52,536 nucleotides of DNA, taken from an uncultured Bordetella sp. Its GTDB lineage: Bacteria > Pseudomonadota > Gammaproteobacteria > Burkholderiales > Burkholderiaceae_E. A program made the position numbers and the translations under genes. The stretch covers positions 1-52,536 of the forward strand of contig CAZZKA010000001.1 in assembly GCA_964654745.1 (NCBI GenBank). Reading direction: 5' to 3'. How positions within the stretch are numbered: the stretch's first letter is position 1; each line of letters starts with the position of its first letter. The notes below the pieces were generated by a model. That model was not told the DNA's origin. It saw only the letters and a list, made by a program, of their open reading frames with translations, and did no database searches. This document shows, piece after piece, positions 1-25,916 of this stretch.

Positions 1-739
1 AAGGCGGTCGCGGTGACCGAACTCACCGTCACGCCCTGGGCAAAGCGGATCGAATAGCCCTGCGAGGTCACCCCGGCGCTGCTGCTGTCAAATGCAACCG
101 TCACCTTGCCGCGCCCGACAAGCGCCTCGAGCGCTTCCTGGATCGCGACAGTCTGGCGGTTTTTGTCGGCGATGTAGCGAATATCAGCGGTGGTGCGCGT
201 GCCGTCGGGCATCGCAAGCTGCAGCCGTAGCTTCGCGCCGGTCACCGTGCTGGCCTGGGGCGTCAACAGGAGGTAATGGCGCGAGACCGCCGCGGCGGTA
301 CCAAGGCTCGTGACGCTGATGCTGCCCCACTCATCCTTGTACGACGGATCGGCGGGCGGGGTCATGCCGAGGCCGGTAACAAGGCGGCCGTTGTAGGCGC
401 TACCAACCAGGGTGATGGAAAACCCCGCCGCTCGCGTCCCGCCCACGGAGACTGCACCCGCGCCGAGGAGTACGTTGAGCCCTCGCGTGAGTTCGGCCGC
501 AAAGGCAGCGTCGTTCAGTCCGGTCGAGCGGATCGTTTCGCTGCGCCCGCCATAGCTGAATACGTAGGCGCCCTCACGGAAGGCAAGACTGCCATCACTT
601 GCCGTACGTGAGGCCGTCAGACGGTAGACGGTCGAGGTCATCACCCCGCCCGCCTGCAGTTCGCTCACCACGCCCTCGGCCTGCGTCTGCGCGCGGCTGA
701 TCACTTCGGGCGGCACGATGCGCACCGGCGTCTGCTTGG
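1..739 (-). repeat. Array C of GNV-signature units (at least 2, continues past the window edge)
   Basis: Codon-checked: ...LNVLLGAGAVSVGGTRAAGFSITLVGSAYNGRLVTGLGMT... and ...VAIQEALEALVGRGKVTVAFDSSSSAGVTSQGYSIRFAQGVTV. Confidence 0.7.
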
Positions 740-3700
740 TGACGGCAAATTCACCGCTCAAATTGGCAAACCCGGCGATGCCGAGTTGCACCGCACCGGC
801 AAGCTGGAAATTGCCGGACCCGTCAAACCGGGTGGCGAGCGTACCCTCCAGGGTCAGTCCGTCGACTCCGGTAACCGCCGCCACCCCGCTCACGCTGCCC
901 GACTTGGTACCGTCGGCAGCTATCAGGATCTGGCCGTTACCGCTGGAAAGCGAGACCCTGGCTGTACCCGCAGCAACCGACGCATACGCATTGCGAGCGG
1001 AGATGGTCCAGCTCTGGCCCTGGGCTTCTTCATTGAGGACCAGATCGAATTCGCCACCGAGTTCGGCCGGGCCGAACCATAGACTGCCCTTGATCGCCAA
1101 CTTGAACACTTGCGCACCGTCGGCGAGCACCAGACTGCGCCCGGGTGCCAGAGTGAGCGTGGTGCTCTGGCGGTCATCGGCACCATTCCAGTCGATGACG
1201 ACACCGCCCGGCGCGAGCAACCCGGTACTGCCGAACTGGCGGTTGATCTCGAGCGACGCGCCGGTGATGTCAGCGCGCACGCCTGCGGCCAACTCGGCCG
1301 AGCCAACCTGTGCACGGGTGGCAAGCCAGCGGCGCGCCGTCTGGCCGGTCGAAACCAGCTCGGTGGCGATCACCACGCCTAGCTGGGTCTGCTGGAGCGC
1401 GGCGCCGACGGTCGAGTTGCCAAAGCGTGCGGCAAGGTTGGCGCCGCCAACCAGCAACTGGTTGACGCGGGCGCTGCTGCCATCGCTCAGCAGAACAGCC
1501 TGATCGGTGCGCGACTCGATGAACAGATCGCCCGAGGCCTGAACCACACCGGCCAGATCGACTGACATCCTGCCGCGCGCGCGCGTCTCGTTGTCGACGA
1601 GGTCAAGGCGGTAGGTTCCCCGTGCCGTTGCTACCTCATCGACGAGTGCACTGCCCCATCGGTTGACTGCGATCAGCAGGCTGTCAGCCTTCACATCCAG
1701 ACCGGGGACGCCCGCCACCGCGACATTGCCCTCGGCGACGGCAGCGTATTGCTTCGTCACGGTCGCCGTAGCGCCGCTGCCCGTCGTGGTGTGCCGCAGC
1801 ACCACCGCGCCTGTACCGCCACTCAGGGTGATGCTCGCCGAGCCAGCGCTCAGCGAACCGTTGGCCTGATCAACGCCGATTCGGATATCGGTGACAGTCG
1901 AGGCCTGACCGTTGACCGTCTTGGTCTGCGTCGTTGATACGAGCTTGAGCTGACCCGAGACCTGTACCGCGCCGGCCACATCGATCGAGCCCTGAAGGAT
2001 GGTGATTTCCTTGCGCTCGATCCCATCGCTGAAGGCAACCGTTCGATTGGGCGAAGTCAGCCCGGTTTTGACGCTCTGACTGACCGCGCGGCCAAGCGTG
2101 TTGATCTGAACGACAGCGTCGGCCTGCAGGCTTACCTGTCCCGAGAATCCGGACAGGCTTGCCTGACCGGACGCATAAAGGGCAAAGCCAGGCTTGGCAG
2201 CGACGACGCCAACCTGCGGAGGCGTATTGCGCGAAATGACGAGACCCAACTCGGCCTGGTTGATCACCACGCCCGCGGAGGCTGTGCCAACCGCGACGTT
2301 GACGCCGGATGCTCCGATCAGGAGATAGTTATCGGGCTCAGCGACCGCCTTGAGAAGCTGCAGCTCGACCGCGGGCAGCGCCTTGCCAGTGAGCGCGCCA
2401 GTCGCTACGAGGCGGAAGGTGCCGGGCGTGCCCGCCACTTCCTGCAGCGCGATGTTGTTGCGGCCAACGCCCGGCAGACTTTCGAGCGCGGTCTTGAGTT
2501 CAGCCTGCCAGGCCTGTGCGCTCGCGGCCGCGCGCACATCGATGGTGTGCACCCAATCGGAGCCGCCGGCTGGCCGAATGCGGATCGCGCTCGCGAGCTC
2601 CCCGGTATCCGAGAACCGAAGATCGATCGTGCGTACCGCTTGCACCGCAAGGGGCGCGACGTTTCGGCCCGCGAGCGCCCCCTGGAAGCGGATATCCCAT
2701 CCACCGCCCGCCAATTCCACCGCCACGTTGCCCGAGCCGATCGTCGAAAGCGCCTCGAGGGCTGAACGCAGCGCCGCCGCGGTGAGGCCCTCCGACTGCA
2801 GCACGGTAGTGAACCGGCCATTGAAGCCGAGCTGAAAAGCACCCGCAGCGGATACCTGGAGCCTTTGCACCTCGCTCGTGGTGCTGCCGGTAGCGGTCTG
2901 CGTCAACGAGGCAGCCGGTGCCTGCCGCGGCGTCACCGTCCCCTGGAGCGGCGCAAACTGCTGGCCTACCGCGGCCCCGCCGAGCGTGACCCGCCATTGG
3001 TTTGCCGCGACATCAAAGCTGGCGCTAGCGGTCGCACCCGTCGCCGAGAATGCTCTGCCATCCGCGGTTTTTGCGGCGAGGAGCGCGCTCACGAGCGCGG
3101 CGCCGCCGGAGGTGGTGTCGTTGAGCGTGGCAAAGCTGATCGGCGCGGTCGTGTACTGACCGGCCGCACCGGTGAGCCCGCTGCTCAGCACCGTCAGCGT
3201 CGCGGCCGGTGCGGTCTGTGCGTTCACCTCCCGGCTGATCGCCGCGATACTCTGGCCGAGAGCCGATCCGCCGAAGGCGATCTGCCAAAGCCCCTGAGCA
3301 TTGACCGTGACGGTCGCTGTGACACCGGTGCTGCCAAGGCTGGCCCCGGCGGTCGCTGTCGCGGCAAGGAGCGCCGACTGGAGCGCACTCGCGCTCGCCT
3401 GCATGCTGATGGCCGCGGTGCGGAAAGTCTGCCCGCCAACCTGCAGAGACAGCGTGAAGGTGCCGGCGATATCGGCTGGCCAACGGCTGAGCGTGTGTAC
3501 CGCCCCGGTCGCGGCTGCGGTCGAACCGCTCGCGCCAGTAAGGGCGTACTGCATCCCAGCCGTGACCCCGGTATTAGTCGCGCTCAACTGCCCCAGCGCG
3601 CGCACCCGTTCGGCCATGGTCCCGGTAAAGCTGATCTCGTAGGCCTGGTCGTAGCTCGGCGACCGAATCTGCCGGACGGTGATATCGGAGGACTGGTAGA

Positions 3701-6700
3701 CCTTCTGCGGCTGGCCCGCCACATTGGCGGTCAACAGCCGCGTGCTGTAGGTGGCCGTGCTGCCGGTGAGGGCCATCAGCGCATCGATGAGATGGCGACC
3801 CTGCGAATCCTGCAGGTTGACGAATTTGACGCTGGCGGACTTCGGACTGTTTGCGAAGCTAAGCGCAAAGCTGTCGGAGTTGGTGGTCGCGCCGCCTGCG
3901 GGAACCTGAATGCGCAGCGTGTAGGCGCTCGGGATCGAGCCCGACTGCGCCTGCTGGATGACTTCACTGCGGTCCGAGGCGGCTACGGCTGCCGCGGGGT
4001 CTGTCGGCGCGCGCATGAAGAGCCCCGTGCCGCCGGCTGCACTGTCGACGGCAACCGACTGCCCAGCCCAGCTGCCAGTGAAGCGAAGCTCAAAGCCGGC
4101 GCTGCGCGAACCACTCACGAGTACATTACCGGCGCCGAACAGCTGCTCAAACGCACTGCCCAGACGCTCGCGCAATACGGTGTCGGTCAGCGCACTGCCG
4201 CTCGCGCTCAACGAGCCCACGCTGACCGTGGTCCCGGCAAAGCTGAAAGCGTAGACGCCCTCCCGGAACCGGCCGCTCGCGCTGTCGTAGGCACCCAGTC
4301 TCAGACGCGTGTCGCTGCGCGCCTGGAAATCAAAGCCGTAGGTGATCGTCCCCTCGGTCCCGGCCGGCATAAGGTCAAGCGCATGGACCGCGCCGCTGGC
4401 GGTCGTTGCCTGCGCAATCAGGTAGTTGCTGCCCCAGTCGCTGCGTTGACTTGGGTCGGCTGGCAGCGTGACCGACAGGCCCTGGATCGCCTGACCCGAG
4501 AGGGTGCCCGCGAGCGTGATCGCAAAGCCGCCTTCTTTGGTCCCGGTGACGACAGCATTGCCAAACCCAAACAGACTTTGCGCAGCCGCCTGCAGTTTCT
4601 GCAACCACACCGCGTCCTGATCGGCTGCAAGGAGCCTGACCTGAGCGCTCGCCGATCCGTAAGCAAGGCTATAGGAACCCTCGCGCACCCGAAGACTCGA
4701 GCCGCTGCCTTCCGCAACGGCGAGCCGGAAGCTGCTCGAGCTGCGGACGCCGCCCTGCTGCGTTTCGGTGATGCTGGCGGTGACCCCCGCAGTCTGAGTC
4801 GCCGTCTGGCTAGCGGGCTGAGCGGTCTGCAGAGCATTCTGCGTGACCGCGAACTGCCCGTTGATGGAAGCAAAGCCCGCAATCGCTATGTCGGCCGCTC
4901 CGGCAAGCTCAAGATTGCCCTGGCTGTCAAAGCGCGTTGCGAAAGTTCCTGTGAGGGTGAGGTCGGAGACCCCGGTCACCGACGCGGTACCTGTGATCAC
5001 TCCGCTGCGCTGAGCCGCGCCGTAGGCGCCGCTTGCATCGTTCTTGCCCAGCCAGAGGTCGCCCGTGCCGTTGCTCAGCCCAACCCGCGCGCCATTAGCC
5101 TGCAAGCCGACGGAGACATTGGTTGCCCGGATGTGCCAGGCGCGATCGCCCTGGGCAGACTGGTCGAGCTCGATATTGAACTGGCCCGACATACTCGCCG
5201 GACCGAAGGCCATCGCACCGTCGACATCAAGCTTGAAAGTACGCTGGCCCTGCGCGAAGCTCAGACTCTGGTCGGGCGAAATCGCGATCGCCGTGCTGGC
5301 CGAATCGGCGGGCCCGTTCCAGTCGATCACCGACCGGGTGCCGGACAGTTCGAGCGCGCCGTTGACGAGTTCGGTATTGAGGAGCAGGCGTGCCGAGCGA
5401 ATATCGGCCAGTGCGTAACCCTGCACTGTGGCAGCACCGAGGAGCGCCTGCGCGCTGATCCAGCGACGCGTCCCCGCCCCACGTTCGGTGCTCAGCACGA
5501 CTGCGATGTCAAGATCCCGCAGGCTCGCGCCCACCGTGCTGTTGCCCAGACTGCCCGAGATACCTGCGCCGCCAAAGATCAGCTGATTGACCGAAACCGA
5601 ATTGCCATCGGTCAGCGTCACGGTAGCCGCGTTGGCGTCGGATCGGCTCTCGATGAACATATCACCGGAAACGCTCAGCGCACCGGCAACCTCGACGTTC
5701 ATCCGGCCGCGCACGCGCGTCTCGTTATCGAGAAGATTCATCGCGTAGTCGCCCGAGCCGGTCGCGACCACCTCGTTTTCGAGGGCGCGCCCCAGGCGGT
5801 TGTAGGCGATGCTGAGCTCCTGGGCATCCAGCGTCACACCGCTGATGCCGCTCAGGGCAAGATTGCCGCCGACCTGAAGGGCGTAGCGCGATGAAGCCGT
5901 CCCGCCGCTCGGCGTAATTTTTTCGATAAGGATCGCCCCGCTCGCCCCGGAGAGCGTCGCGCCGACGCCTCCCGGGGTGAGCTGTCCGCTGACCCCGGAG
6001 AGCCCGATGCGAAGCGTGCTGGTAGTAATGCCGCCCGTGGTGACGGTCTCGGAGCGAATGCCCATCGCGCCGCGCAACTGGCCGCCAAGCGCGCTGATGC
6101 TGACCGTCCCATCGCTGATCAGCAGCTCCTTGACCGCATTACCCGAAGCGAACTCGATCGCCAGCGACGCGCCGCCGACGGTGATCGAGCGCGAAACCGC
6201 TTCTCCGAGTGTGTTGACGCGAACGGCAGCCGTTGCGCTGAGCGACAGGTCGGCCAGGCCGCTCACCCCAGCCGTGCCGTTGGCGACTAGCGCGTATCCG
6301 GACTCGCCAAGGGCGTTGCGGGCGATGTAGAGGCCAAGCGAGCCGCCCGAGATCGTGACGCCGCCGAAATCCGCCTGGACGTTGCCCAGCCCGACCAGGA
6401 GCCTGGGATCGGACGAACTGTCTTTCTCGACCGAGAAACTGCCCGACAGGCTGCCGAATCCATCGACCGCCACGGACACATTGTTGCCGGACAGGCGGAG
6501 ATTGTTGGCGCTGAAACTCGCGCTCAGCGTGCCGGAAAAACTCAATCCCGCGAGCCCTGAAACCGACGCTGTACCGGTCATGGTGCCGGTCCGGTTGGCT
6601 CCGTTCAGGTAGAAGCTGCCGCTGCCGTTGGACAGGGCCACCGATGCGCCGCTCGCCGAGACGCCGACGCTGACGTTCTGTGCCTGAATGTCCCAGATAC

Positions 6701-9700
6701 GCTGACCGCTTGCCGCGTCCTTGTCGAGCACGATCTTGAAATCGCCCGACAGGCGGGTCGGTCCGAAGTCGAGCGCACCAGAGACCGGGATCTCCCATCG
6801 GCGATCGGCCATGTTGATGAGCGCCTGCTTGCCGCTGTCGATCGCGGACAACGCGATCGTCCGCGCCTGGGCACCAGACCAGTCGAGCGCTGCGCGCGAA
6901 TTGTCTTCGATGAAATTGCCCGCCGCATCCATCGCCTGATTGAGGCGTAACTGGGCTGTCCTAAGATCGGCGAGCGCGTTGCCTAGCACATTGATCGAAC
7001 CGAGGTTGCCAAGCGCGGTAAGCCAGCGCTGACCAGCATCGGCGGCATTCTGCGAGAACACGAGCGCGAGATCGACGCCGCCAAGCTGGGCGAGCGTGCT
7101 CGACCCGGATGCGTAAACGAGCGAGAGCCCCGTGCCGCCCAACACAGTCTGGTTGAGCGATACGGTGCCGCCTCCCTGCAGGGCCTGACTGACCGCATTG
7201 CGTGCCTCGACGAATACCTCACCCGAAACGGTCAGGCCCGCCACTGACGCGGTCGCTACGCCGCTCACACGGGTCTCGTTGTCGAGCAGATCGACGGTGT
7301 AGCTGCCCGCGCCGGTATTGACCGCGAGCCCGCGCACGGCGCTGCCCAGACGGTTGTAGGCGACCCGCATCTGCGAGGCGGTGAGGCTCACCCCGGAGCC
7401 GGCGAGACTCACATTGCCCTCGAGCTGAACCGCATGCGTACTTGCCGCCGAGCCGATCTTTTTGAGGAGGATCGCGCCCGCTCCTGAGCTCAGCTGAGCG
7501 GTAAGGGCGCCCAGCGAAAGAGAACCACTCACGCCAGACAGACCGATCCGCATGTCGTTGACGGTCTGGCCATTGACGACCGATGCGCTCGAGGTGATCG
7601 CCAAGGCTCCGCTCACAGTGCCGAGTCCGGTGACGCTGAGGCTGCCGCTGGAGATCGACACTTCCTGGATTCTCGATCGGTCGGCGAAGCTGATGCTCAC
7701 CCCGCCGATCTGGGCGTTGACCGTCTGGCCAAGCGTGTTGATGCGCACCGACGCCGTCGCGGTCAAGCTGACACCTGAGAAACCATTGAGACTCGCGCTG
7801 CCATCGGCCACAAGCGCGTAGCCTGCTCCCGTCTCAGACGTGCCTGCAATGTAGAGGCCGAGGTTGGCGTTACTTACTGTCACGCCTGCGCCACCCGCGC
7901 CAAACGAGGCGGAGACCCCGGTTGCGCCGATCAGAATCTGACCGCCCGCGCTCTTGCTTGCCGTCAGGTTGCCGCTCAACGATCCGAACCCGGCGACATT
8001 TATCGCCATTGAACTGCCACTGAGGGTGAGCCCCGTTCCGCTGAACGAGGCAGAGAAGTTGCCGCTCGCCGATACGCCGGCGAGCCCCTCCACGACAGCC
8101 GTCCCGGAGATCGATCCGCTTCGGGTATTGCCGGGACCGAGCACCAGCGTGCCACTCGCGCCTTCGATGCCGACGTACGCGCCGCCGCTGCGAAAGCCCA
8201 CGCTTGCACCGGCTGCGTCGACAGTCCAGACCTTGTCTGCACCGCTCTGATCAAGCGTGATCTTGAAATCACCGGAAATCAGCGCGCCGCCAATGTCGAT
8301 CGATCCGCTGACAGGGATCTCAAATCTCGGCAGCGATTGCGCAAGGACCAGGGATTTGGTCGCTGACAGGGAAATGGTCTGCGGGTTGGTCGCCCAGTTG
8401 ATGACCGAACGCGCGGCGTCGGTGGCATGATTGGCCGCGCTGATCAACGCCCCCGCTGCGTCATAAGCACGATTGATGTGCATTTGCGCCGACTGGAGGT
8501 CGCTCAGCGTGTACCCCATGACGCTGGCCGAACTGAGCGCGGTGCTGCCGGTGATCCAGCGCCGCGCGTTGCTTGTGACGTCCTCGGTACTCACGATCGC
8601 TGCGATGTCGATGCCGCCCAGGCTCGCGATCTGGCTCGCGCCCGAACGCAGTACAGCACCGACCCCCGCGCCGCTGACGACCAGCTGCTTGGTCTGGATC
8701 TGGCTGCCGTTGGTCAGCGTGACCGTCTGCGCAAGACGGCTTTCGATCGACAGCGCGCCGCTCAGCTCCAGCGTGTCAGCGAGGGTTACGGTCGCCTGGC
8801 CATTGAGCCGGGTCTCGCCGTCCAGCATGGAGACCGCGTAGTCGCTGCTGGGGGTTGCCACCGTCGCGGCAAGCGCTTCACCCCAACGGCTGTACGATAC
8901 GCGCAGCGCCGCGTTGAGGTTGAGCCCCGGCGCGGTGAGGGCAACATTGCCATCGGCCTGAAGCGCGACGCGGCGCGTGATCGCACCGGCCGCGTCGACC
9001 TGATGGCGCAGCATCAGTGCGCCCGCCGCTCCGGTGAGCGAGGCCTGCGCGCCGCCAAGAGACAGCGTGCCGCCGGCGTTTTCAAAGCCGATCGATACGT
9101 CGGTCGTTACGACGCCGTTGCTGATCCGGTTGGTAGTGACCAGCTTGAGGTCGCCCTGCACATGCCCTAGGCCGGTGACATCAATACGGCCGTTGGTGAT
9201 CACAAGCTCTTTGCGCGCAAGCCCGTCAGCAAAAGCAAGCGTAGACGATGTGGTGAGGCCGGTGGGGATAGAAAGGTTTACAGCCTCGCCCAACGCATTG
9301 ACTCGCAACTGCGCAGCCGCCGAGAGGGTCACCGAGCCACTGAAGCCAGAAAGCGCGGCGTTGCCGGAGACCTGCAGCGCGTAGCCATCGGTACCATCGG
9401 CTCGCTTGGTGACAAGAAGCGCCAGTTCGCCGTTTTGAACCGCTGCGCCGACGCCGCCGCTGCCCACCTGCGCGGTGACACCGTTCGCACCGATCAGAAG
9501 CCGCTCCGCGCTCACCTGTGCCACGCGTGAGACCGTTGCCTTGAGCTGCGGCATGGGCGCACCGGCGAGCCCGTTGACAAAGCTCACATCGAAGGTCAGC
9601 GGTTGGCCCGCGCGCGCTTGCACCGATACATGATCCGCGCTCAGGTCGGGCAGCGACCCTATCAGCAGCTTGAGGGTCTGCGCGATCGCCTCGTCGCCAA

Positions 9701-12700
9701 GCCCGGCGATGCTTAGTTCGGCCGATACGTCGCTACGGTCGGCGAGCTGCACCGACACTGCCGTCGGTCGAAGGCCTCCGGTCATCGCAAGCGACAGCGT
9801 CTGCACCGGGAGTACCACCAGCGAAGGGACATCACGGGCGGCAAGGCCGCCCTGGTACGCCACGGTGTACTGTCCTGCAGTCCCGGTCGCCGCGACGGCG
9901 AGGTTATCGCCGCTGGAAATCGCCGGCAGTCCCGCCAACGCATCGCGCAGGCTCTGCGCGGTGAGCGTCGCCGCATCGAGGATATCGGTGGTCTGGTTCA
10001 GTCCATCGAAGGCAAGCCTGAAACGACCTGCCGGCACGGGAAGGGACAGCGTCTGAGTCTCACTGCTGGTGCTCGCCTGCCGGAAAACCGCAAGGCCAGC
10101 CTCCGGCGCAGCCACCGCACTGGTGATCCGTCCCAACATGACGTCAAGGTCAAGATCGCTCGCCGACCCGCCAAACGCCACGCGCCAGACCTTGGCACCG
10201 TCGGACTGGGTGAGCAGGTCTACGGCGAGCTCGACGCCGCGCTGCGCGAGACTTTGCCCATCGGGTGCGCGCGCGGCGAGCAGCGCAGACTTGACCTGCT
10301 GCGCCGACGCCGAAAACGAGAGCGGGCCGGTGGTATGGGTCTTGCCCTGCATCCAGAGGCTGAGCTCGAAGGTACCGACAACACGTTCGTCGTAGAGGCG
10401 AACCGTCTGCACCGCACCGATCGCCGCGCTGCCGTCGCGTGAGGTTGAGACAGATGGGCTAAGTCCCGCACTCGCCGCGCCCACCTGCAGCGCAGGAAGG
10501 TTTTGCGCCGCCAGCGTGCCCGCAAAACTTATCTGGAAGCGCGAGCTCGAAAGCGTTGAGGCGGGATCGTAGGCAACGCTCACATTGCCGGTACCGAGCG
10601 CGGTCTGCAGCGCAGTTTCGATCGCCCTTGCCTGCTTTATCACCGAAAACCCTGGTGATCCCTGCCGAACGGTCTTGAGCGCAAGCTTGATGTCCGAGCT
10701 GGAGCTGAAGCCCTGCAGCGCGGATACGTCCAGGCCCGCGCGCGCCCCCCGGAAATCGATGACGTAGTCGACGCTGTTGTGACCGGTGTAGCCCTTCTGG
10801 TAGCTCACGCTCACGTTACCCGCGCCAACCACCGCCTCGAGCGCCTGCTGCAGCTGCGCGGTGTGATAGGTCGGGTCCGCGGAAAAGCGGACCTTGCTCG
10901 TCGTACGACCGTCGAGGGACAACCAGAACTGACCCGACGCGCGGTTGGCAGCCGTGATGGTGAGCACCTGGCGCTCGTTAACCGCGCTGTCGCTGCCGTC
11001 GACGACAATCGGCGCGGTAACCGAGCCGGCCAGCGACAGCGTGAAACTGCCTCCCGCACCCGAAGCGCGGTTGAGAACCAGCTGCTGGACTTCGCTGCGC
11101 GCGATCTGCATCGCAGCGGTTTCTTCGATGACGCCCCAATCGTTTTTATCGGCGGGATCCGGCGGCTGGATCAGCCACAGCCCGGGTTGGTCGCCTGCCG
11201 AGGCGAGCGCGATCGGCTGGCCAGCAAGCGAGCCGATGAATTCGGCGTCAAATCCTCCGGTGCGCGTTCCCTTGACCTGAACATTGCCGGCACCCACGAC
11301 CGCGAGCCGCTCGAAGGCGGCCTGGATCCTTGCTGCGAGTACCTCATCGGTGACCGGCCGGCCGGCTGCGGTGTCGGCATCGAGCGTGCTGAAGGTCTGG
11401 CTCTGCCCGCCCCAGCTGATGGTGTAGAGGCCCTCGCGAGTGAACTTACCGGTCTGATCCGACACGTTGAGGCGAACGACTGCTGTGGTGATCTCACCCC
11501 CGGCGCGGCTCGTCCCTACCGTCGCGCCCGCGCCTACCGTGCTGCTCAGACTCTCGAAAACCGGTACCGACTGAATGGCTGGCTCGCGGATAACCGAGAA
11601 CGAACCCGCAAGCTGACCGACCCCGGCGATGCCGAGCTCCATCGCACCTGCGAGCTTTAGCCGATCGTTGGCAAAGCTTGCGCTCAGACTGCCGCTGGCC
11701 GAGACCCCGTTGATACCCGTGACGGATCCATCGCCAGACAGGGTGCCAGTCACGCCCGACGAAGAGATTCGCAGATCACCGGTGACGTTTTCGATGCTCG
11801 CGCGCGCGCCATTGGCCTGCAGCGAAACGCTCGCATTGGTGGCCAGCACCTGCCACGCCGGGACCGTCTGGCCGTTCTCGACGACGCTACCCGCAACCAC
11901 ATGGAAAGTTCCGCTGATCTGCGCGCCGCCGATCGCAAGCGTGCCCTGCACCGCCGTGGCGAGCCGCGAGACCTGGGTATCGAGGACAAGGGCCGCCGTA
12001 TCGCTAATGACCAACGGCAGGCCGGCACTGTTGGCACCAGGCCGCCAGTTGATGACTTTTTCGTCGCCCCCCGCGTAAAGGGCGCCATCACTCGCGAGCT
12101 GCCGGTTGATGTCGAGCATGCCGATATCGATGCTCGCCCGTGCGACTCCAGTCACCTCGGCCGAGCCGACGGTCGCGCTCGTGCTGAGCCAGCGTCGCTG
12201 CGCACCGGTGGTTTCGGTGCTGAGCGCCATGGCGAGATTGACATTACCCAACGCCAGGCTCGCGCCCGCGCGTACGCTTGCCGACAACCCCGCGCCACCG
12301 AGGAGCAGCAGGTCGGCCGTCGCGGTGCTGCCGTCGCTCAGGGTGAGCGTCTGGTTGCGGCGCGACTCGAGGAAAATGTCTCCCTCAGCGCTCAACCAGT
12401 CACCGATGCCCACAGCGGCATAGCCGCGTACCCGGGTCTCGTTATCGATCTGGTCCATCAACACCCAGCCGCCAGGCGTGGCGATACTGCGTTCGACAGC
12501 CGCGCCGCTGCGGTTGATACCGACCTGCAGTCGCTGGGCGCTCAGGCTCAGTCCCGCAACGCCGGTGAGCGCCGCTTCGCCCTCGGCCTGGATCGCATAG
12601 CGCAGAACGGGCTGGTTGCTGACGGTCTCTGAGAACAGAAGGAGGGCGCCGCTTCCTCCCGACAGCGAAACAGCAGGGCCACCGAGGCTGAGCGAACCCG

Positions 12701-15680
12701 ACAGCCCATCGATACCGACCTCCAGTTGTTGCCGGGTGGTCGAGCCGATAGCCACCTGCCTGCTGTCGATGCGGAGACTGCCGGCAAGCGAGCCCCAGGA
12801 CCCGAGTTGCAACGTCGCATTGGCGATCGATACCGAGCTCACCGGCCGCTCATCGGCAAATGCCATCGCAACCGTGCTGCCATCGGCGAGGGTCAGGGTT
12901 TCATTGACGCTTGCGCCCAGGCGATTGATTTCGACGCGCGCTCGCTGCGCTGACAAGGAAAACTGATTACCCGCCGTGCTGAGCGCGGCCCCGCCCTCAG
13001 CGACGAGCGCGAACCCTGCCTGACCCACCGCATCGGTACGGAGGATGAGGCCAAGCCTCGCATCGGTCACTCTGACCTGGGCACCGGACGATCCGATCAA
13101 CGCGTTGAGCCCGGTCCCGGCGATGATCAGGCGGTCACCGGCAGGGGTGGTTTGGCGGCTGATGCTGAGGTTGCCGCTGATCTCGCCGAAGCCCGCCACC
13201 GCGAGGGTGGCACCCGCCAAGCTGACCGAATAGGTCCCGGCGGCCCCGTCGAAGACGACCCGGCCCGCTGTAGCGGTAAGGGTCAGGCCCGCCACGCCAC
13301 CGATTTCGATCTGGCCGCTCAGCTCGCCGCTGCGGCGGCGCTCGGCATCGATGCGCAGTTGCCCACTTGCCTGGTTGAGACGCACGAAGGCCGGGCCTGC
13401 AGCAAGCAGCCACTGGGCATTGGCGATGCTCAGCTGCCAGGCGTTGGCGAGCCGCTCATAGGCGATCGTGAACTGGCCCGAGAGGCGGTTGTCGCCCAAC
13501 ACGAGCGCGCCCTGAACAGGCAGGCTGAGGACATCGCCCACCTGATCGAGCACAAACTGGCGGCCGGAAGCGAGCGTAAAGCGGCGCGCCTCAGCCCAAT
13601 CGATGGTCACGCCCTGAAGGTTCTGCGCCACCGTAATCGCGCGGTTGATCGACCACTGGGCGGATTCGAGATTGTCGAGGGCATAGCCAGCAACCACCAT
13701 GGCCTTGGCCGCGCCGCGGCTCGAAAGCCAGCTGTTGCCGTCCTTATCCCGGGCATACACCAGAGCGAATTCGGCCTCGGTGGCGGAAACTGCGCCTGAA
13801 CTGGAAGCGCCAGGAATGAGCGCGACCAGACCGCGCGATCCCGAAAGCGCGTACTCGGTGAGTTGGATCGTCTGCCCGTTGGAGAGCAGGCGCACCCGCT
13901 TTTGCGCATCGAGCGCGAGATCACCCTCAAGCCGGCCCAGGCCCTGCACCTGAATCGCAAAACGGCCGCTCATCTGCAGCGCGTTGGCCGGCAGGTCGAC
14001 CAGCAGGTCGCCACCACCGGGGAGCTTGAGCGAGCGCAGCAGCGCCTGATCGTGTTCGTTGTAGCTCAGCCTCACCCGCTGCCCGGTCAGCTGAACCGCA
14101 CTGTCCAGGGCGACCGACACATCGAGCAGACCCTGAACCGCGGTCCGACTGGTGGCCTCGCCCAGCCCCGTAGTCGGACTTGAGGTGCGGAAAACGACGC
14201 CCAGCGCGCCATTCTGTCCCGCGAGGGTCAGCAGGCCGAGGCTGAGTTCGGCTGCGGTCAGTTGGACACCGACCAGCAGCTCCTGGGTGGTGACGCCCTC
14301 CGCGGCCTCGGTCTGGCTCGCAAAGGTCACGCCCCCTTTTACCCAGCCCAGGCTGCCCAGCTGTAACGTCGCGTCACTCGCCTCGAACCGTCCGCCCGGA
14401 CTGTCGCTCGAGGCGAGATAGGACACCGATCCCTGCATCGAGACGCCGGCGCCTGCCTGCAGCGTCGCAGCGCCGCTCACCTGCAGGCTGAAGCGCGCGG
14501 GCGCCGAGGAAATCGACAGCGCGCCGTCGGAGAGGAGCAGCGCCGCACCCCGGGCCGGGTCGCCGGCGCGCATCTGCAGACCCTGCGCCGACACAGAGAG
14601 GACGCCCTGCGCCTGATCGTAGCCGAGCGTGAAATTGCCGGCGATCGACGGCCCGCTTCCGGCCGAAAGCGAGCCCTGCCCGGTCAGGCTCGCCTGCAGG
14701 GTCCCCGGACCCATCACCAGTTTGCCGGCGAGATTGGTCAGCGCTCCGTTCAAACCCGGCAGAGACCACTGCGCATTGACGCTCTGGGCAGTCAGCGTGG
14801 TCTCGACCTGGTTACCGGCCAGCAGGCCGACGGCGACCTGCCAGGTACCGGATAGCCTCAGGCCCGATATGTCGAGCGAAGCATCGAGCGATACAGCTGC
14901 CTGCGAAACCTGGTTGGCAACTTGGGTGAGCCATTGGTCCAGGGCCTGCTGCGCTTGTGGTATGGAAGCAACATTTAGCTGTTGTAAACCTGGCAATTGC
15001 GTTGCAACCAGCCGCAGACGGTTTGCCTCGTAGAGCGGCTTGAGAAAAATTCCGTTGCCCGCATAGAGCCCGGTGTAGCTCGTGAAAACGCCCTGACGCG
15101 ACGACCAGGTCATCACATCAAACACCTGGCCGGCGGTCGGTCTGAAATCGTTTATGAAATCGAGCGACAGGGTCCCAGCCAGCTTGGCCTCGCCCGATAC
15201 AGCGACTCGATCGTAGCCATCGAGTACCTGCGGCTGGCCTGCGCCGGGTGTGAGGCCGCCGATTTCGATCTTGAGTTTGCCGCTGGCCTGTTGCTCGAAA
15301 GACTGGACCGTCAGGATCCCTGGCGACTCACCCGGTGCGACCACTCCGCCGTTATTGAGCGGACCATCCCACACACCCGTGCCGAGCAGCGTGTAGCCCT
15401 GATTTAACGCAAGCGACTGGCCTTGCTCAGAGGGAGAATTGAGGTTGAGGAGCGATCCGGAGGGCGATTGCAACTGCAGCGGGTCGCCGGTTGCGGCGCC
15501 GGGCCACTGGGTCTGCGACGCGCTCGAACTGTCATCGGCGAGCACCTGCAAGGGCGCCGATTCGGCCGCTCGCACCTCGGGCTGATCGGAGCCGCTGACA
15601 GGCAAATCCGCCGCCAGCAGGATCCGCTGCTCAAGGACTTCCACCCGAACCGCAGGCAAAGCTTTTTTGCGTTTGGCCAA
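1..15680 (-). CDS. Giant repetitive secreted/surface protein, LEPR-XLL-like N-terminus, C-terminally truncated by the window edge (>=5,226 codons)
   Basis: I scanned every 60-nt line in the minus frame whose codon first bases fall at coordinates = 2 mod 3. No in-frame stop (plus-strand CTA/TCA/TTA) occurs from 15686 down to 1. The first upstream in-frame stop is TGA at 15689-15687. The proposed start is TTG at 15680-15678, with AAGGGGG (reverse complement of 15691-15697) 10 nt upstream. Hand translation is coherent at both ends: N-terminus MAKRKKALPAVRVEVLEQRILLAADLPVSGSDQPEV, window edge ...LVGRGKVTVAFDSSSSAGVTSQGYSIRFAQGVTVSSVTATA. The ORF track omits it because it has no stop inside the window. 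No track ORF inside the gene body is in this frame. Confidence 0.9.
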   Translation of the reverse strand, partial: MAKRKKALPAVRVEVLEQRILLAADLPVSGSDQPEVRAAESAPLQVLADDSSSASQTQWPGAATGDPLQLQSPSGSLLNLNSPSEQGQSLALNQGYTLLGTGVWDGPLNNGGVVAPGESPGILTVQSFEQQASGKLKIEIGGLTPGAGQPQVLDGYDRVAVSGEAKLAGTLSLDFINDFRPTAGQVFDVMTWSSRQGVFTSYTGLYAGNGIFLKPLYEANRLRLVATQLPGLQQLNVASIPQAQQALDQWLTQVANQVSQAAVSLDASLDISGLRLSGTWQVAVGLLAGNQVETTLTAQSVNAQWSLPGLNGALTNLAGKLVMGPGTLQASLTGQGSLSAGSGPSIAGNFTLGYDQAQGVLSVSAQGLQMRAGDPARGAALLLSDGALSISSAPARFSLQVSGAATLQAGAGVSMQGSVSYLASSDSPGGRFEASDATLQLGSLGWVKGGVTFASQTEAAEGVTTQELLVGVQLTAAELSLGLLTLAGQNGALGVVFRTSSPTTGLGEATSRTAVQGLLDVSVALDSAVQLTGQRVRLSYNEHDQALLRSLKLPGGGDLLVDLPANALQMSGRFAIQVQGLGRLEGDLALDAQKRVRLLSNGQTIQLTEYALSGSRGLVALIPGASSSGAVSATEAEFALVYARDKDGNSWLSSRGAAKAMVVAGYALDNLESAQWSINRAITVAQNLQGVTIDWAEARRFTLASGRQFVLDQVGDVLSLPVQGALVLGDNRLSGQFTIAYERLANAWQLSIANAQWLLAAGPAFVRLNQASGQLRIDAERRRSGELSGQIEIGGVAGLTLTATAGRVVFDGAAGTYSVSLAGATLAVAGFGEISGNLSISRQTTPAGDRLIIAGTGLNALIGSSGAQVRVTDARLGLILRTDAVGQAGFALVAEGGAALSTAGNQFSLSAQRARVEINRLGASVNETLTLADGSTVAMAFADERPVSSVSIANATLQLGSWGSLAGSLRIDSRQVAIGSTTRQQLEVGIDGLSGSLSLGGPAVSLSGGSGALLLFSETVSNQPVLRYAIQAEGEAALTGVAGLSLSAQRLQVGINRSGAAVERSIATPGGWVLMDQIDNETRVRGYAAVGIGDWLSAEGDIFLESRRNQTLTLSDGSTATADLLLLGGAGLSASVRAGASLALGNVNLAMALSTETTGAQRRWLSTSATVGSAEVTGVARASIDIGMLDINRQLASDGALYAGGDEKVINWRPGANSAGLPLVISDTAALVLDTQVSRLATAVQGTLAIGGAQISGTFHVVAGSVVENGQTVPAWQVLATNASVSLQANGARASIENVTGDLRISSSGVTGTLSGDGSVTGINGVSASGSLSASFANDRLKLAGAMELGIAGVGQLAGSFSVIREPAIQSVPVFESLSSTVGAGATVGTSRAGGEITTAVVRLNVSDQTGKFTREGLYTISWGGQSQTFSTLDADTAAGRPVTDEVLAARIQAAFERLAVVGAGNVQVKGTRTGGFDAEFIGSLAGQPIALASAGDQPGLWLIQPPDPADKNDWGVIEETAAMQIARSEVQQLVLNRASGAGGSFTLSLAGSVTAPIVVDGSDSAVNERQVLTITAANRASGQFWLSLDGRTTSKVRFSADPTYHTAQLQQALEAVVGAGNVSVSYQKGYTGHNSVDYVIDFRGARAGLDVSALQGFSSSSDIKLALKTVRQGSPGFSVIKQARAIETALQTALGTGNVSVAYDPASTLSSSRFQISFAGTLAAQNLPALQVGAASAGLSPSVSTSRDGSAAIGAVQTVRLYDERVVGTFELSLWMQGKTHTTGPLSFSASAQQVKSALLAARAPDGQSLAQRGVELAVDLLTQSDGAKVWRVAFGGSASDLDLDVMLGRITSAVAAPEAGLAVFRQASTSSETQTLSLPVPAGRFRLAFDGLNQTTDILDAATLTAQSLRDALAGLPAISSGDNLAVAATGTAGQYTVAYQGGLAARDVPSLVVLPVQTLSLAMTGGLRPTAVSVQLADRSDVSAELSIAGLGDEAIAQTLKLLIGSLPDLSADHVSVQARAGQPLTFDVSFVNGLAGAPMPQLKATVSRVAQVSAERLLIGANGVTAQVGSGGVGAAVQNGELALLVTKRADGTDGYALQVSGNAALSGFSGSVTLSAAAQLRVNALGEAVNLSIPTGLTTSSTLAFADGLARKELVITNGRIDVTGLGHVQGDLKLVTTNRISNGVVTTDVSIGFENAGGTLSLGGAQASLTGAAGALMLRHQVDAAGAITRRVALQADGNVALTAPGLNLNAALRVSYSRWGEALAATVATPSSDYAVSMLDGETRLNGQATVTLADTLELSGALSIESRLAQTVTLTNGSQIQTKQLVVSGAGVGAVLRSGASQIASLGGIDIAAIVSTEDVTSNARRWITGSTALSSASVMGYTLSDLQSAQMHINRAYDAAGALISAANHATDAARSVINWATNPQTISLSATKSLVLAQSLPRFEIPVSGSIDIGGALISGDFKITLDQSGADKVWTVDAAGASVGFRSGGAYVGIEGASGTLVLGPGNTRSGSISGTAVVEGLAGVSASGNFSASFSGTGLTLSGSSMAINVAGFGSLSGNLTASKSAGGQILIGATGVSASFGAGGAGVTVSNANLGLYIAGTSETGAGYALVADGSASLNGFSGVSLTATASVRINTLGQTVNAQIGGVSISFADRSRIQEVSISSGSLSVTGLGTVSGALAITSSASVVNGQTVNDMRIGLSGVSGSLSLGALTAQLSSGAGAILLKKIGSAASTHAVQLEGNVSLAGSGVSLTASQMRVAYNRLGSAVRGLAVNTGAGSYTVDLLDNETRVSGVATASVAGLTVSGEVFVEARNAVSQALQGGGTVSLNQTVLGGTGLSLVYASGSSTLAQLGGVDLALVFSQNAADAGQRWLTALGNLGSINVLGNALADLRTAQLRLNQAMDAAGNFIEDNSRAALDWSGAQARTIALSAIDSGKQALINMADRRWEIPVSGALDFGPTRLSGDFKIVLDKDAASGQRIWDIQAQNVSVGVSASGASVALSNGSGSFYLNGANRTGTMTGTASVSGLAGLSFSGTLSASFSANNLRLSGNNVSVAVDGFGSLSGSFSVEKDSSSDPRLLVGLGNVQADFGGVTISGGSLGLYIARNALGESGYALVANGTAGVSGLADLSLSATAAVRVNTLGEAVSRSITVGGASLAIEFASGNAVKELLISDGTVSISALGGQLRGAMGIRSETVTTGGITTSTLRIGLSGVSGQLTPGGVGATLSGASGAILIEKITPSGGTASSRYALQVGGNLALSGISGVTLDAQELSIAYNRLGRALENEVVATGSGDYAMNLLDNETRVRGRMNVEVAGALSVSGDMFIESRSDANAATVTLTDGNSVSVNQLIFGGAGISGSLGNSTVGASLRDLDIAVVLSTERGAGTRRWISAQALLGAATVQGYALADIRSARLLLNTELVNGALELSGTRSVIDWNGPADSASTAIAISPDQSLSFAQGQRTFKLDVDGAMAFGPASMSGQFNIELDQSAQGDRAWHIRATNVSVGLQANGARVGLSNGTGDLWLGKNDASGAYGAAQRSGVITGTASVTGVSDLTLTGTFATRFDSQGNLELAGAADIAIAGFASINGQFAVTQNALQTAQPASQTATQTAGVTASITETQQGGVRSSSSFRLAVAEGSGSSLRVREGSYSLAYGSASAQVRLLAADQDAVWLQKLQAAAQSLFGFGNAVVTGTKEGGFAITLAGTLSGQAIQGLSVTLPADPSQRSDWGSNYLIAQATTASGAVHALDLMPAGTEGTITYGFDFQARSDTRLRLGAYDSASGRFREGVYAFSFAGTTVSVGSLSASGSALTDTVLRERLGSAFEQLFGAGNVLVSGSRSAGFELRFTGSWAGQSVAVDSAAGGTGLFMRAPTDPAAAVAASDRSEVIQQAQSGSIPSAYTLRIQVPAGGATTNSDSFALSFANSPKSASVKFVNLQDSQGRHLIDALMALTGSTATYSTRLLTANVAGQPQKVYQSSDITVRQIRSPSYDQAYEISFTGTMAERVRALGQLSATNTGVTAGMQYALTGASGSTAAATGAVHTLSRWPADIAGTFTLSLQVGGQTFRTAAISMQASASALQSALLAATATAGASLGSTGVTATVTVNAQGLWQIAFGGSALGQSIAAISREVNAQTAPAATLTVLSSGLTGAAGQYTTAPISFATLNDTTSGGAALVSALLAAKTADGRAFSATGATASASFDVAANQWRVTLGGAAVGQQFAPLQGTVTPRQAPAASLTQTATGSTTSEVQRLQVSAAGAFQLGFNGRFTTVLQSEGLTAAALRSALEALSTIGSGNVAVELAGGGWDIRFQGALAGRNVAPLAVQAVRTIDLRFSDTGELASAIRIRPAGGSDWVHTIDVRAAASAQAWQAELKTALESLPGVGRNNIALQEVAGTPGTFRLVATGALTGKALPAVELQLLKAVAEPDNYLLIGASGVNVAVGTASAGVVINQAELGLVISRNTPPQVGVVAAKPGFALYASGQASLSGFSGQVSLQADAVVQINTLGRAVSQSVKTGLTSPNRTVAFSDGIERKEITILQGSIDVAGAVQVSGQLKLVSTTQTKTVNGQASTVTDIRIGVDQANGSLSAGSASITLSGGTGAVVLRHTTTGSGATATVTKQYAAVAEGNVAVAGVPGLDVKADSLLIAVNRWGSALVDEVATARGTYRLDLVDNETRARGRMSVDLAGVVQASGDLFIESRTDQAVLLSDGSSARVNQLLVGGANLAARFGNSTVGAALQQTQLGVVIATELVSTGQTARRWLATRAQVGSAELAAGVRADITGASLEINRQFGSTGLLAPGGVVIDWNGADDRQSTTLTLAPGRSLVLADGAQVFKLAIKGSLWFGPAELGGEFDLVLNEEAQGQSWTISARNAYASVAAGTARVSLSSGNGQILIAADGTKSGSVSGVAAVTGVDGLTLEGTLATRFDGSGNFQLAGAVQLGIAGFANLSGEFAVTKQTPVRIVPPEVISRAQTQAEGVVSELQAGGVMTSTVYRLTASRTASDGSLAFREGAYVFSYGGRSETIRSTGLNDAAFAAELTRGLNVLLGAGAVSVGGTRAAGFSITLVGSAYNGRLVTGLGMTPPADPSYKDEWGSISVTSLGTAAAVSRHYLLLTPQASTVTGAKLRLQLAMPDGTRTTADIRYIADKNRQTVAIQEALEALVGRGKVTVAFDSSSAGVTSQGYSIRFAQGVTVSSVTATA
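740..2333 (-). repeat. Super-repeat module M5 (~531 aa)
   Basis: Begins DNYLLIGASGVNVAVG. Core is TYRLDLVDNETRARGRMSVDLAGVVQASGDLFIESRTDQAVLLSDGSSARVNQLLVGGAN (DNETR at 1581-1595). Also contains ARRWLAT, IDW, GEFDLVLN. Ends GIAGFANLSGEFAVT. Confidence 0.85.
2334..4841 (-). repeat. Array B of about seven ~100-aa GNV-signature units
   Basis: Codon-checked unit at about 2640-2880: TSEVQRLQVSAAGAFQLGFNGRFTTVLQSEGLTAAALRSALEALSTIGSGNVAVELAGGGWDIRFQGALAGRNVAPLAVQ. Other units end GAGNVLVSGSRSAGFELRFTGSWAGQSVAV, LWQIAFGGSALGQSIAAI, QWRVTLGGAAVGQQFAPL, GTFRLVATGALTGKALPAV. Confidence 0.8.
4842..6410 (-). repeat. Super-repeat module M4 (~523 aa)
   Basis: Begins DPRLLVGLGNVQADFGG. Core is AYNRLGRALENEVVATGSGDYAMNLLDNETRVRGRMNVEVAGALSVSGDMFIESRS (DNETR at 5715-5729). 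Also contains TRRWISA, IDW, GQFNIELD. Ends AGFASINGQFAVT. Confidence 0.85.
6411..7950 (-). repeat. Super-repeat module M3 (~513 aa)
   Basis: Begins GGQILIGATGVSASFG. Codon-checked core is NTGAGSYTVDLLDNETRVSGVATASVAGLTVSGEVFVEAR (DNETR at 7269-7283). Also contains GQRWLTA, LDW, GDFKIVLD. Ends DGFGSLSGSFSV. Confidence 0.85.
7951..9510 (-). repeat. Super-repeat module M2 (~520 aa)
   Basis: Begins ERLLIGANGVTAQVGSGG. Core is DYAVSMLDGETRLNGQATVTLADTLELSGALSIESRLAQTVTLTNGS (DGETR at 8808-8822). Also contains ARRWITG, INW, GDFKITLD. Ends VAGFGSLSGNLTAS. Confidence 0.8.
9511..11589 (-). repeat. Array A of about six ~100-aa GNV-signature units
   Basis: Codon-checked example at 10741-10980: NERQVLTITAANRASGQFWLSLDGRTTSKVRFSADPTYHTAQLQQALEAVVGAGNVSVSY...VIDFRGARAGLDVSAL. 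Other units end GNVQVKGTRTGGFDAEFIGSLAGQPIAL, GTGNVSVAYD...FQISFAGTLAAQNLPAL, YTVAYQGGLAARDVPSL, FDVSFVNGLAGAPMPQL. Confidence 0.75.
11590..13140 (-). repeat. Super-repeat module M1 (~517 aa)
   Basis: Begins GDRLIIAGTGLNALIGSSGAQVRV. Core is WVLMDQIDNETRVRGYAAVGIGDWLSAEGDIFLESRRNQTLTLSDGS (DNETR at 12432-12446). Also contains QRRWLS and INW. Ends GIAGVGQLAGSFSV. Confidence 0.8.
13141..14290 (-). repeat. Degenerate, shortened copy (M0) of the ~520-aa super-repeat
   Basis: It keeps the C-terminal-half landmarks: GYALDNLESAQWSINR, IDW, LSGQFTIAY...W, AVAGFGEISGNLSISR. It lacks a clean DNETR/FIESR core. Confidence 0.5.
14291..15680 (-). other. N-terminal head region of the giant protein (leader plus SPGILTV-type segment)
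   Basis: Translated segment: LEQRILLAAD ... GTGVWDGPLNNGGVVAPGESPGILTVQSFEQQASGKLKIEIGGLTPGAGQPQVLDGYDRVAVSGEAKLAGTLSLDFINDFRPTAGQVFDVMTWSS. The PGxSPGxLTV ... G.L.IE.GG ... D.v.V.G.a.LaGtL pattern is common in heads or tails of very large beta-solenoid surface proteins. Confidence 0.6.
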
Positions 15681-16104
15681 AACCTGTCAGCCCCCTTGAA
15701 GCTCCGCTGCGACCGGTCGTTGCGATCGACATTCGCCCAGATACGAGATGCCTGGAACCAGTGCAGCCAGCCCGTTCGATCTGCCTCAGAGCCCGGCGTT
15801 GCTCCGTCTTGCGCGGATTTGACGCCAGTAAACAAACCAGTGTAGCCAAGTCAAGCCGCAAACGGGTGATCGATTTTGGTGGCGTTACGTATCGATTCGG
15901 AAAACGTCATCCCGTCTGCACCCCCAAGGGCCGGCCAGCGGGTTGAGAACAGAGCCTTCGGAGGGGGGCAGCCTCTGGGTTCGGCCCGGAGCGATCGGAA
16001 GATCGATCCAGAACGTATTGCCTAGGTCGTTTGATGGATCAAAGCCTGCCGCTCCGCTGCGCTGGCTCAAGCTCCATACCGCCGACGCGCGCGACAATCG
16101 AACG
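15681..16104. promoter_or_regulatory. Divergent intergenic/promoter region between the giant gene and the P-type ATPase
   Basis: About 420 nt with no convincing coding frame. It contains ATCGAT hexamers at 15869, 15891 and 16002, and an exact 11-mer GCTCCGCTGCG at 15701-15711 and 16051-16061. Confidence 0.5.
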
Positions 16105-24275: not shown

Positions 24276-24377
24276 GGCCGTCTCCTCTTGATGGTCGTCG
24301 GAATATGAGGCACTCCGATCGTCGGGGCAAACCGCCAATCTACCTCGGTCTGCAGCACTCTGCATCCGGCAAGCCGC

Positions 24378-25673: not shown

Positions 25674-25916
25674 TGCAGTCTCCCCACGGCAGCGCGCCAC
25701 CCGGGGGCTCGGCCCTCGGTGGCACGCCGGTATTGCGTCGTTTCTCGATGACGGGATTCTAGATTACGGCGTCGGGCGCCTGCCCCTCAGCCATCCCTCG
25801 CACGGACCGCGCCGGCACGCATCCCTACCCCGCCCGCCCGCCTTCATCGCGCGCAGGCCGCCTCTCTCGTATGATTGCAAGACGCACAGACAAATAACAG
25901 CCTCAGGAGACCCCTC

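Follow-up and report, generated by a model that had tools for sequence, protein, structure and literature searches.

A giant LEPR-XLL class gene with predicted beta-meander super-repeats and phage-type decoration domains in an uncultured Burkholderiales bacterium

Introduction

LapA of Pseudomonas, MpIBP of Marinomonas, and SiiE of Salmonella are giant RTX adhesins that leave the cell by type I secretion. An acidic composition, lack of cysteine, lack of a Sec signal, and RTX repeats are together the classical signature of a type I substrate, and repeat adhesins normally vary in copy number. Here, we describe a giant gene on the minus strand of positions 1 to 15,680 of a 52,536-nucleotide (nt) stretch of DNA (contig CAZZKA010000001.1, assembly GCA_964654745.1; hereafter the window) from an uncultured Burkholderiales bacterium. 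The gene is cut by the left edge of the window and encodes a protein that we place, by its sequence, in the LEPR-XLL class. An earlier note, made by reading the letters of the window alone, had drawn attention to it.

Genes for proteins of more than 10,000 amino acids (aa) are recognized in bacteria but rare, and they are under-reported through fragmented assemblies, in which they are lost (PMC11573180; 10.1101/2023.11.21.568195). A survey of such genes highlights the PVC phyla, Actinobacteriota, Myxococcota, and Margulisbacteria, and proposes that their products often act in adhesion to other cells (West-Roberts et al., 10.1101/2023.11.21.568195). A LEPR-XLL giant of ~8,000 aa has been described from Vibrio, with C-terminal RTX and serralysin-type domains and the look of a secreted protein (PMC10868602); our literature search found no experimental characterization of the family. 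The family itself is known, and the present gene is notable for its size, a stretch of more than 5,000 aa without a Pfam domain, a repeat (A) whose predicted fold has no analogue, and a second repeat (B) of phage decoration domain type.

Results and Discussion

An intact gene that continues beyond the window

The minus-strand frame whose codons have their first bases at 2 mod 3 is open for 5,228 codons, from 15686 down to base 3. Its last stop lies at 15689-15687, and computational translation found none from there to the window edge, in agreement with the earlier note's reading of the frame. In mononucleotide shuffles of the same DNA, 5,228 codons contained a mean of 130 stops, so that an open frame of this length is not due to chance; below position 17000 the other two minus frames contain 100 and 171 stops. 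GC content by codon position 1/2/3 is 0.654/0.542/0.777, with third-position values of 0.72 to 0.81 in 12 neighbouring genes of the window, and synonymous codon fractions correlate with those of 12 other window genes at r = 0.97. Translation begins at a TTG codon (15678..15680, minus strand), which is preceded by a Shine-Dalgarno-like AAGGGGG at 15691-15697 and leaves a 5' part of 5,226 codons (~527 kDa) within the window (1..15680, minus strand). The product begins (M)AKRKK, and an orthologue, P0002, has a similar N terminus (MAK...).

A search of public assemblies by way of a neighbouring TctC gene recovered an 80,199-nt ENA contig (ERZ27275609:k141_10038856; L006), which, together with three shorter contigs, aligns to the window at 99.5 to 99.8% identity. 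An independent gene call on L006 (99.6% identical) gives a product of 18,574 aa that starts at the equivalent of window position 15680, with the same base called for the TTG, and the end coordinate of 15680 given in the earlier note is thereby confirmed. The start on L006 is at record position 62,890, with ~7.1 kb of contig left downstream of the gene's end; since truncation at the contig end would have given 20,963 aa, we regard the call as complete. The figure of 18,574 aa belongs to this 99.6%-identical contig and not to the window itself, which holds ~28% of a gene of 55.7 kb with a product of ~1.9 MDa. The proposals that the true gene is larger than its visible part and that its C terminus and any partner genes lie off the window proved right. 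The gene shares the class of more than 10,000 aa with giant genes of Omnitrophota and other bacteria and would rank among the largest reported for Proteobacteria.

The same open frame is carried by L006 (ENA) and by a second contig, L007 (Logan). Between the window and L006, 22 differences were counted in 6,867 nt of the giant gene, and their division into 16 synonymous and 6 non-synonymous changes indicates purifying selection. Window positions 1-15680 (minus strand) are the 5' part of a single real and intact chromosomal gene. A chance frame, misassembly of a repeat array, or a pseudogene in decay could be suspected from the long shadow open reading frames (ORFs) that occur in this GC-rich DNA, one of them an antisense ORF of 1,009 aa, and from an orthologue (L003, described below) that is split over three frames. 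Against such an artefact stand the absence of stops where ~130 would be expected, a third-position GC content and codon usage that are right for the genome, agreement among independent assemblies with their excess of synonymous changes, and five orthologous loci (L001, L002, L004, L005, and L011) that are open over their whole length. Moreover, positions 1-15700 are without long DNA repeats of the kind that suggests misassembly, and the copies of the protein repeats share only 25 to 50% aa identity. We therefore hold an artefact or a dead gene to be highly improbable.

The 1,009-aa ORF (2865-5894, plus strand) lies exactly antisense to the giant gene, with codons in register. What keeps it open is the rarity of TTA, CTA, and TCA in the giant gene (34 uses in 5,228 codons), and its 15% Arg and its GC profile by codon position (0.79/0.57/0.63), which is wrong for a gene of this genome, mark it as a shadow. 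As the earlier note had it, the listed ORFs inside the gene all lie in other frames and are shadows of this sort, while the gene itself is missing from the list; the lister omits ORFs that run off the window.

A word-indexed protein search with a 200-aa query from the giant protein returned a single 229-aa fragment, and the two word-indexed searches that listed many matches listed none longer than ~1,175 aa and never returned the 18,574-aa protein. Giant proteins thus appear to be systematically invisible to the word-indexed protein search used here, and giant genes may go unnoticed both for this reason and because ORF listers drop those truncated by an edge.

An N terminus of the LEPR-XLL class

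Over the 5,228 residues of the window part, the protein is rich in Ala (14.7%), Gly (12.5%), Ser (11.0%), Leu (11.0%), Val (8.4%), and Thr (7.9%), poor in Lys (1.3%), and free of Cys (0/5,228), with a pI of 5.27. The earlier note had described such a composition from the stretches that it translated, and it extends over the whole of the window part.

The N terminus reads (M)AKRKKALPAVRVEVLEQRILLAADLP. Following a basic KRKK stretch, a LEPR-XLL motif at aa 14-29 (15600..15647, minus strand; VRVEVLEQRILLAADL) is matched by the NCBIfam model NF012209 (LEPR-XLL, model name LEPR-8K) at 18.1 bits against a cut-off of 17, the sole NCBIfam match above cut-off. The collinear orthologue P0002 scores 22.6 bits with the same model, and LE-x-R-x-LL is found within residues 12-41 of P0002, P0020, P0024, P0115, and P0098. 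By its sequence, we assign the giant protein to the LEPR-XLL ("LEPR-8K") class: its motif scores above the curated cut-off, its size is extreme (no fewer than 5,226 aa within the window, and 18,574 aa on L006, for a family of the order of ~8,000 aa), and its orthologues carry RTX repeats. It departs from the family name in that 18,574 aa is over twice the size implied, and its close relatives differ in having the RTX block in an internal position. RTX repeats, which the Vibrio member has toward its C terminus, are absent from the window part; in 6/6 collinear orthologue loci they are present ~3,050 aa past the position of the window edge.

Downstream of the motif, alignment with relatives delimits a conserved domain of ~140 aa at aa ~95-240 (14967..15404, minus strand), which we call the PGxSPG domain. 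Its motif is present in P0002, P0020, P0024, P0115, and P0148, and these five and P0098 align over the domain, with a mean column identity of 52% in an alignment of seven relatives; the domain has no match in Pfam or among PDB sequences. No Sec-type hydrophobic segment was detected at the N terminus, where the Kyte-Doolittle score over 19 residues (KD19) reaches no more than 0.91 within the first 100 aa. Over the whole window part KD19 peaks at 1.7, and there are no transmembrane segments. A Pfam search at E <= 0.1, run on three overlapping 2,000-aa pieces, matched no family anywhere in the 5,228 aa. The gene differs from the giant genes highlighted in that survey both in belonging to Burkholderiales and in being without the enzyme domains reported there.

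Two kinds of repeat in alternating blocks

Self-comparison and profile hidden Markov models (HMMs) resolve most of the window part into two kinds of repeat, A and B, in the order A A / B cassette / A A A / B cassette / A / B cassette. The A super-repeats, six copies of ~520 aa with 25 to 50% mutual identity in self-BLAST, were delimited with an HMM built from the fourth copy. All lie on the minus strand: A1 at aa 358-848 (13143..14615; E = 1e-27), the most diverged copy; A2 at aa 849-1374 (11565..13142; E = 4e-66); A3 at aa 2059-2579 (7950..9512; E = 7e-92); A4 itself at aa 2580-3095 (6402..7949); A5 at aa 3096-3624 (4815..6401; E = 2e-97); and A6 at aa 4452-4989 (720..2333; E = 3e-68). An AlphaFold2 model of A4, calculated with an alignment of all six copies, has a predicted local distance difference test score (pLDDT) of 79 and a predicted template modelling score (pTM) of 0.67 and consists of ~30 antiparallel strands, mostly of 10 to 20 residues, with tight turns and one short helix. 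The A super-repeats are accordingly predicted to be all-beta and to form long beta meanders. The A profile had no match among PDB sequences, and Foldseek found no convincing analogue of the A4 model in the PDB (best TM-score, 0.16). Readings of the A fold as an outer-membrane barrel, LptD, or an ApoB100-type belt were rejected, as they rest on weak PDB matches with TM-scores of at most 0.2, and a phage tail fibre was likewise rejected, since the best BFVD match combines a probability of 0.97 with a TM-score of only 0.19.

The B domains are CTE-like domains of ~90 aa, located by iterated HMM search and also on the minus strand. Cassette 1 (aa 1375-2058; 9513..11564) holds six copies, at aa 1408, 1570, 1663, 1757, 1875, and 1959, and cassette 2 (aa 3625-4451; 2334..4814) another six, at aa 3659, 3800, 4061, 4154, 4271, and 4349. 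Cassette 3 (aa 4990-5228; 3..719) is cut by the window edge after two copies, at aa 5029 and 5138, bringing the total in the window part to 14 copies in three cassettes. A model of one domain (aa 4268-4353, 14-sequence alignment; pLDDT 88.7, pTM 0.78) has a beta-beta-alpha-beta-beta-beta topology.

In contrast to A, the B domain has clear relatives, and these are in the virion of mycobacteriophage Bxb1, where the extra domains of the distal tail protein have been termed "CTE-like" (PMC13252515). With hmmsearch, the B profile matched the Bxb1 "tail tip cage" protein gp23 (9d93) in several tandem copies (E = 6.6e-15) and the C-terminal part of the major capsid protein (9d9w; E = 1.7e-6). Foldseek aligned the B model to capsid, portal-connector, tail, and tail-tip chains of Bxb1 with probability 1.0 and TMq values of 0.51 to 0.73, and B cassette 1 matched PHROG 1260, a minor tail protein family, at E = 5e-6. 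Together, profile and predicted fold identify the B domain as a homologue of the CTE-like domains that decorate the Bxb1 virion. The likeness extends over four Bxb1 structures (9d9w, 9d9x, 9d94, and 9d93), and gp23 has tandem copies as the giant protein does. Here, however, the domains stand in cassettes of six in a giant cellular protein of a Gram-negative bacterium rather than in an actinophage virion, and identity to the Bxb1 chains is only about 17 to 25%. A module in common with phage virion decoration domains hints at a shared function in binding to surfaces.

Collinear orthologues of conserved length

Scanning 1.84 billion representative proteins by HMMER with aa 3090-4289 as the query returned 163 matches at E <= 1e-3, 99 of them at E <= 1e-10 and most of them fragments. 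With so few matches in so large a set, the giant family can be called rare. A scan of GTDB representatives found no copy of the window's own genome; its best orthologous locus (L001) comes from an uncultured Burkholderiales metagenome-assembled genome (MAG), with 66% identity over the query segment. Other orthologues were found in MAGs of Polaromonas (L002), an alphaproteobacterium (L003), and Celeribacter marinus (L005), in the cultured Donghicola tyrosinivorans DSM 100212 (L004), and, by a metagenome scan, on a TARA Oceans scaffold (L011). Five of these loci (L001, L002, L004, L005, and L011) are a single open frame over the whole of the fetched sequence, 10.2 to 20.9 kb each. Their 27,233 aa contain no Cys, which brings the Cys-free total to ~32,000 aa when the window part is included. 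Since D. tyrosinivorans is a cultured carrier of a collinear orthologue, it makes function, secretion, and structure directly testable.

The orthologue in L003 is split over three overlapping frames (nt 16419-16462 and ~19096-19208) and aligns continuously to L001. The stop at nt 16459 was considered as a true C terminus and rejected in favour of a frameshift, as the next two overlapping frames extend the L001 alignment gap-free; the split is due either to indel errors in the assembly or to recent breakage of the gene.

Between aa 1598 and 5190 of the window protein, L001 is 58 to 73% identical with an offset that shifts by no more than 7 residues. L003, L004, and L011 are in turn in register with L001, with an offset drift of at most ~22 residues over 6,750 aa at 40 to 65% identity, across Burkholderiales, Rhodobacterales, and the TARA Oceans scaffold. 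For a repeat protein it is unusual that length and module order are kept so closely in two proteobacterial classes, as aligned here. This could be taken to favour a non-secreted structural protein of defined length, such as a scaffold or ruler of the cytoplasm or cell envelope, a reading with which the lack of a Sec signal and an A fold without known analogue would also be compatible. A cytoplasmic protein would nevertheless have little reason to exclude Cys altogether or to carry RTX repeats that bind Ca2+, B-type domains are known elsewhere from the exposed surface of virions, and the window part has no transmembrane segments (maximum KD19, 1.7). We consider a non-secreted protein quite improbable.

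L001 continues collinearly past the position of the window edge. Beyond that position, the orthologues have a further ~900 aa of B and A repeats and then a conserved region of ~2,400 aa, which is also present in P0020 and P0098 and ends in a block of RTX nonapeptides. In L001, L002, L003, L004, L005, and L011, this block lies ~3,050 aa past the position of the window edge. From this collinearity, the giant protein is expected to share that layout past the edge and to extend further still after the RTX block. Apart from RTX, Pfam matched nothing in the 6,971 aa of L001. A megasynthase of the nonribosomal peptide synthetase or polyketide synthase kind, the second common class of giant genes in bacteria, which gene size alone might bring to mind, would need condensation, adenylation, ketosynthase, acyltransferase, or carrier domains, and none is present in the 5,228 aa of the window part or in the 6,971 aa of L001. 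Neither the composition nor the predicted all-beta structure fits such an enzyme. For the part examined, a megasynthase is excluded by these Pfam results, and for the protein as a whole we see next to no chance of one.

Proposed secretion and role

The lack of a Sec signal and of Cys, the acidic pI, and the RTX repeats of the orthologues lead us to infer that export is independent of Sec, and with it a secretion route, a cellular location, and a function for the giant protein. We think it rather likely, on balance, that it is a type I secreted, Ca2+-binding surface fibre or adhesin. The protein would be exported unfolded, most likely through a type I system of an ATP-binding cassette (ABC) transporter, a membrane-fusion protein, and a TolC-like channel, and, once outside, would fold with Ca2+ to give a beta-rich fibre of great length. 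In such a fibre, the A units may form a long beta-rich shaft on which the B cassettes present modules that bind other molecules, perhaps glycans, while the N terminus with its LEPR-XLL motif and PGxSPG domain may hold the fibre at the cell surface. The whole would act as an adhesin or matrix fibre. From composition, the earlier note had suggested a fibrous extracellular protein. The LEPR-XLL motif, the lack of a Sec segment and of Cys, the predicted beta-meander A repeats, the virion-type B domains, and the RTX block of the orthologues all add to that suggestion, which in its claims of fibrous form and extracellular location stays at the level of the probable.

As LapA, MpIBP, and SiiE are generally described, the giant protein resembles them in being very large, acidic, Cys-free, without a Sec signal, and built of repeated modules, with RTX repeats in its orthologues. 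It differs from them in having predicted ~520-aa beta meanders and phage CTE-like domains in place of BIg, cadherin, or VCBS extenders, in having no type I secretion genes within 37 kb upstream, and in a repeat number that is conserved among orthologues rather than variable. Two-partner secretion of the TpsA/FHA type was rejected as a route, as the protein has neither an N-terminal two-partner secretion domain in Pfam nor a signal segment and the upstream neighbour of its gene is a P-type ATPase.

Several observations weigh against a type I secreted adhesin. No RTX motif or HemolysinCabind match was found in the 5,228-aa window part, and no BIg, cadherin, or VCBS extender domain was found there with Pfam at E <= 0.1. 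The 37 kb upstream contain no genes for ABC-type secretion, membrane-fusion, TolC-like, or LapG/LapD-like proteins. Length kept within ~20 residues among orthologues might indicate a more specialized role in structure. Finally, two relatives, P0151 (from a Sphaerotilus MAG) and P0152, have more than 450 to 550 aa of further open sequence behind the RTX block, so that the block is internal and not the C-terminal element of a classical type I substrate. An internal block in relatives fits the length of 18,574 aa in the lineage of the window, and the region after it in P0151 and P0152 may be the beginning of the remaining ~10,000 aa of the giant protein. That region is distinct and without a Pfam match (...ILTRVA.LT.AT..HG.G.VVIREDD.L.L.EE...), and a metagenome scan with the segment from P0152 returned no match.

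An alternative that takes up these points is a secreted or surface giant that does not depend on type I secretion; the LEPR-XLL motif, for example, might be the recognition signal of a dedicated, hitherto undescribed export or anchoring pathway, and the RTX block merely an internal element of Ca2+-dependent folding. LE-x-R-x-LL and the PGxSPG domain are the only N-terminal features kept across otherwise different giants, as such a pathway would lead one to expect, and both the internal RTX block of P0151 and P0152 and the lack of type I genes in the 37 kb upstream agree with it. On the other hand, no candidate machinery was found, and Cys absence, acidic pI, and RTX repeats are a classical type I signature. 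The Vibrio LEPR-XLL giant, moreover, has C-terminal RTX and serralysin-type domains (PMC10868602). We regard this alternative as doubtful. We would give a similarly low rating to the broader speculation that the LEPR-XLL giants, rather than being generic sticky adhesins, form a distinct extracellular structure of fixed length, with a new ~520-aa beta-meander fold, a module order and length kept to ~20 residues over more than 6,700 aa between Alpha- and Betaproteobacteria, and LE-x-R-x-LL as a possible signal for a dedicated, undescribed step of export or anchoring; if true, the 18.6k-aa form of Burkholderiales would be a lengthened variant of it. A type I secreted surface fibre or adhesin remains the reading that we prefer.

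Gene neighbourhood

The giant gene diverges from a gene for a P-type cation ATPase (16018-18711, plus strand; Pfam), and gene calls on L006 together with the Pfam matches of the ATPase define an intergenic region between the two (15681..16017). A scan of this region for sigma-70 promoters and terminators found no consensus. The nearest relatives of the ATPase outside this population are 61 to 64% identical, and named matches at 55 to 58% identity come from Acidovorax, Polaromonas, and Burkholderiaceae. The host is an uncultured Burkholderiales bacterium in which the neighbours of the giant gene are Comamonadaceae-like.

In two contigs with a 61%-identical ATPase, a response regulator and a 7TMR-DISM kinase occupy the place of the giant gene. 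Because these contigs keep the gene order but carry other genes at that site, the giant gene looks like a lineage-specific insertion or replacement next to the ATPase. Synteny around the ATPase was also tried as a route to full-length relatives; none was gained, as the site holds other genes. Of the two contigs, the JGI contig that carries P0274 has the order ATPase-TctC-ABC-permeases...DctPQM, like the window, and the ENA contig (L010; ERZ27292242 k141_3711494) has ATPase-ABC and then ends.

Beyond the ATPase, the window encodes TctC receptors, Liv-type and phosphonate ABC systems, a TRAP transporter (DctPQM), and Pst-PhoU, as well as a histidine kinase, a UDP-glucose dehydrogenase, and an acyl-CoA synthetase. 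The ABC, TRAP, and Pst systems in these 37 kb upstream of the giant gene are for solute uptake only. A 253-aa ORF without a Pfam match at 25764-26525 (minus strand) is probably another shadow, since in this area the independent call on L006 has a gene for a phosphonate-binding protein of 342 aa, which runs in the opposite direction.

Three genes for periplasmic receptors of the TctC/Bug family lie within 30 kb (18820-19779, 23268-24365, and 48417-49394). Multiple TctC/Bug receptor genes are typical of Burkholderiales chromosomes, in agreement with the Acidovorax- and Polaromonas-like best matches. One of the receptor genes adjoins a gene for a Rieske [2Fe-2S] oxygenase with a LigXa-like C-terminal domain (24378-25700, minus strand), and this locus possibly encodes a demethylase of aromatic or lignin-derived compounds.

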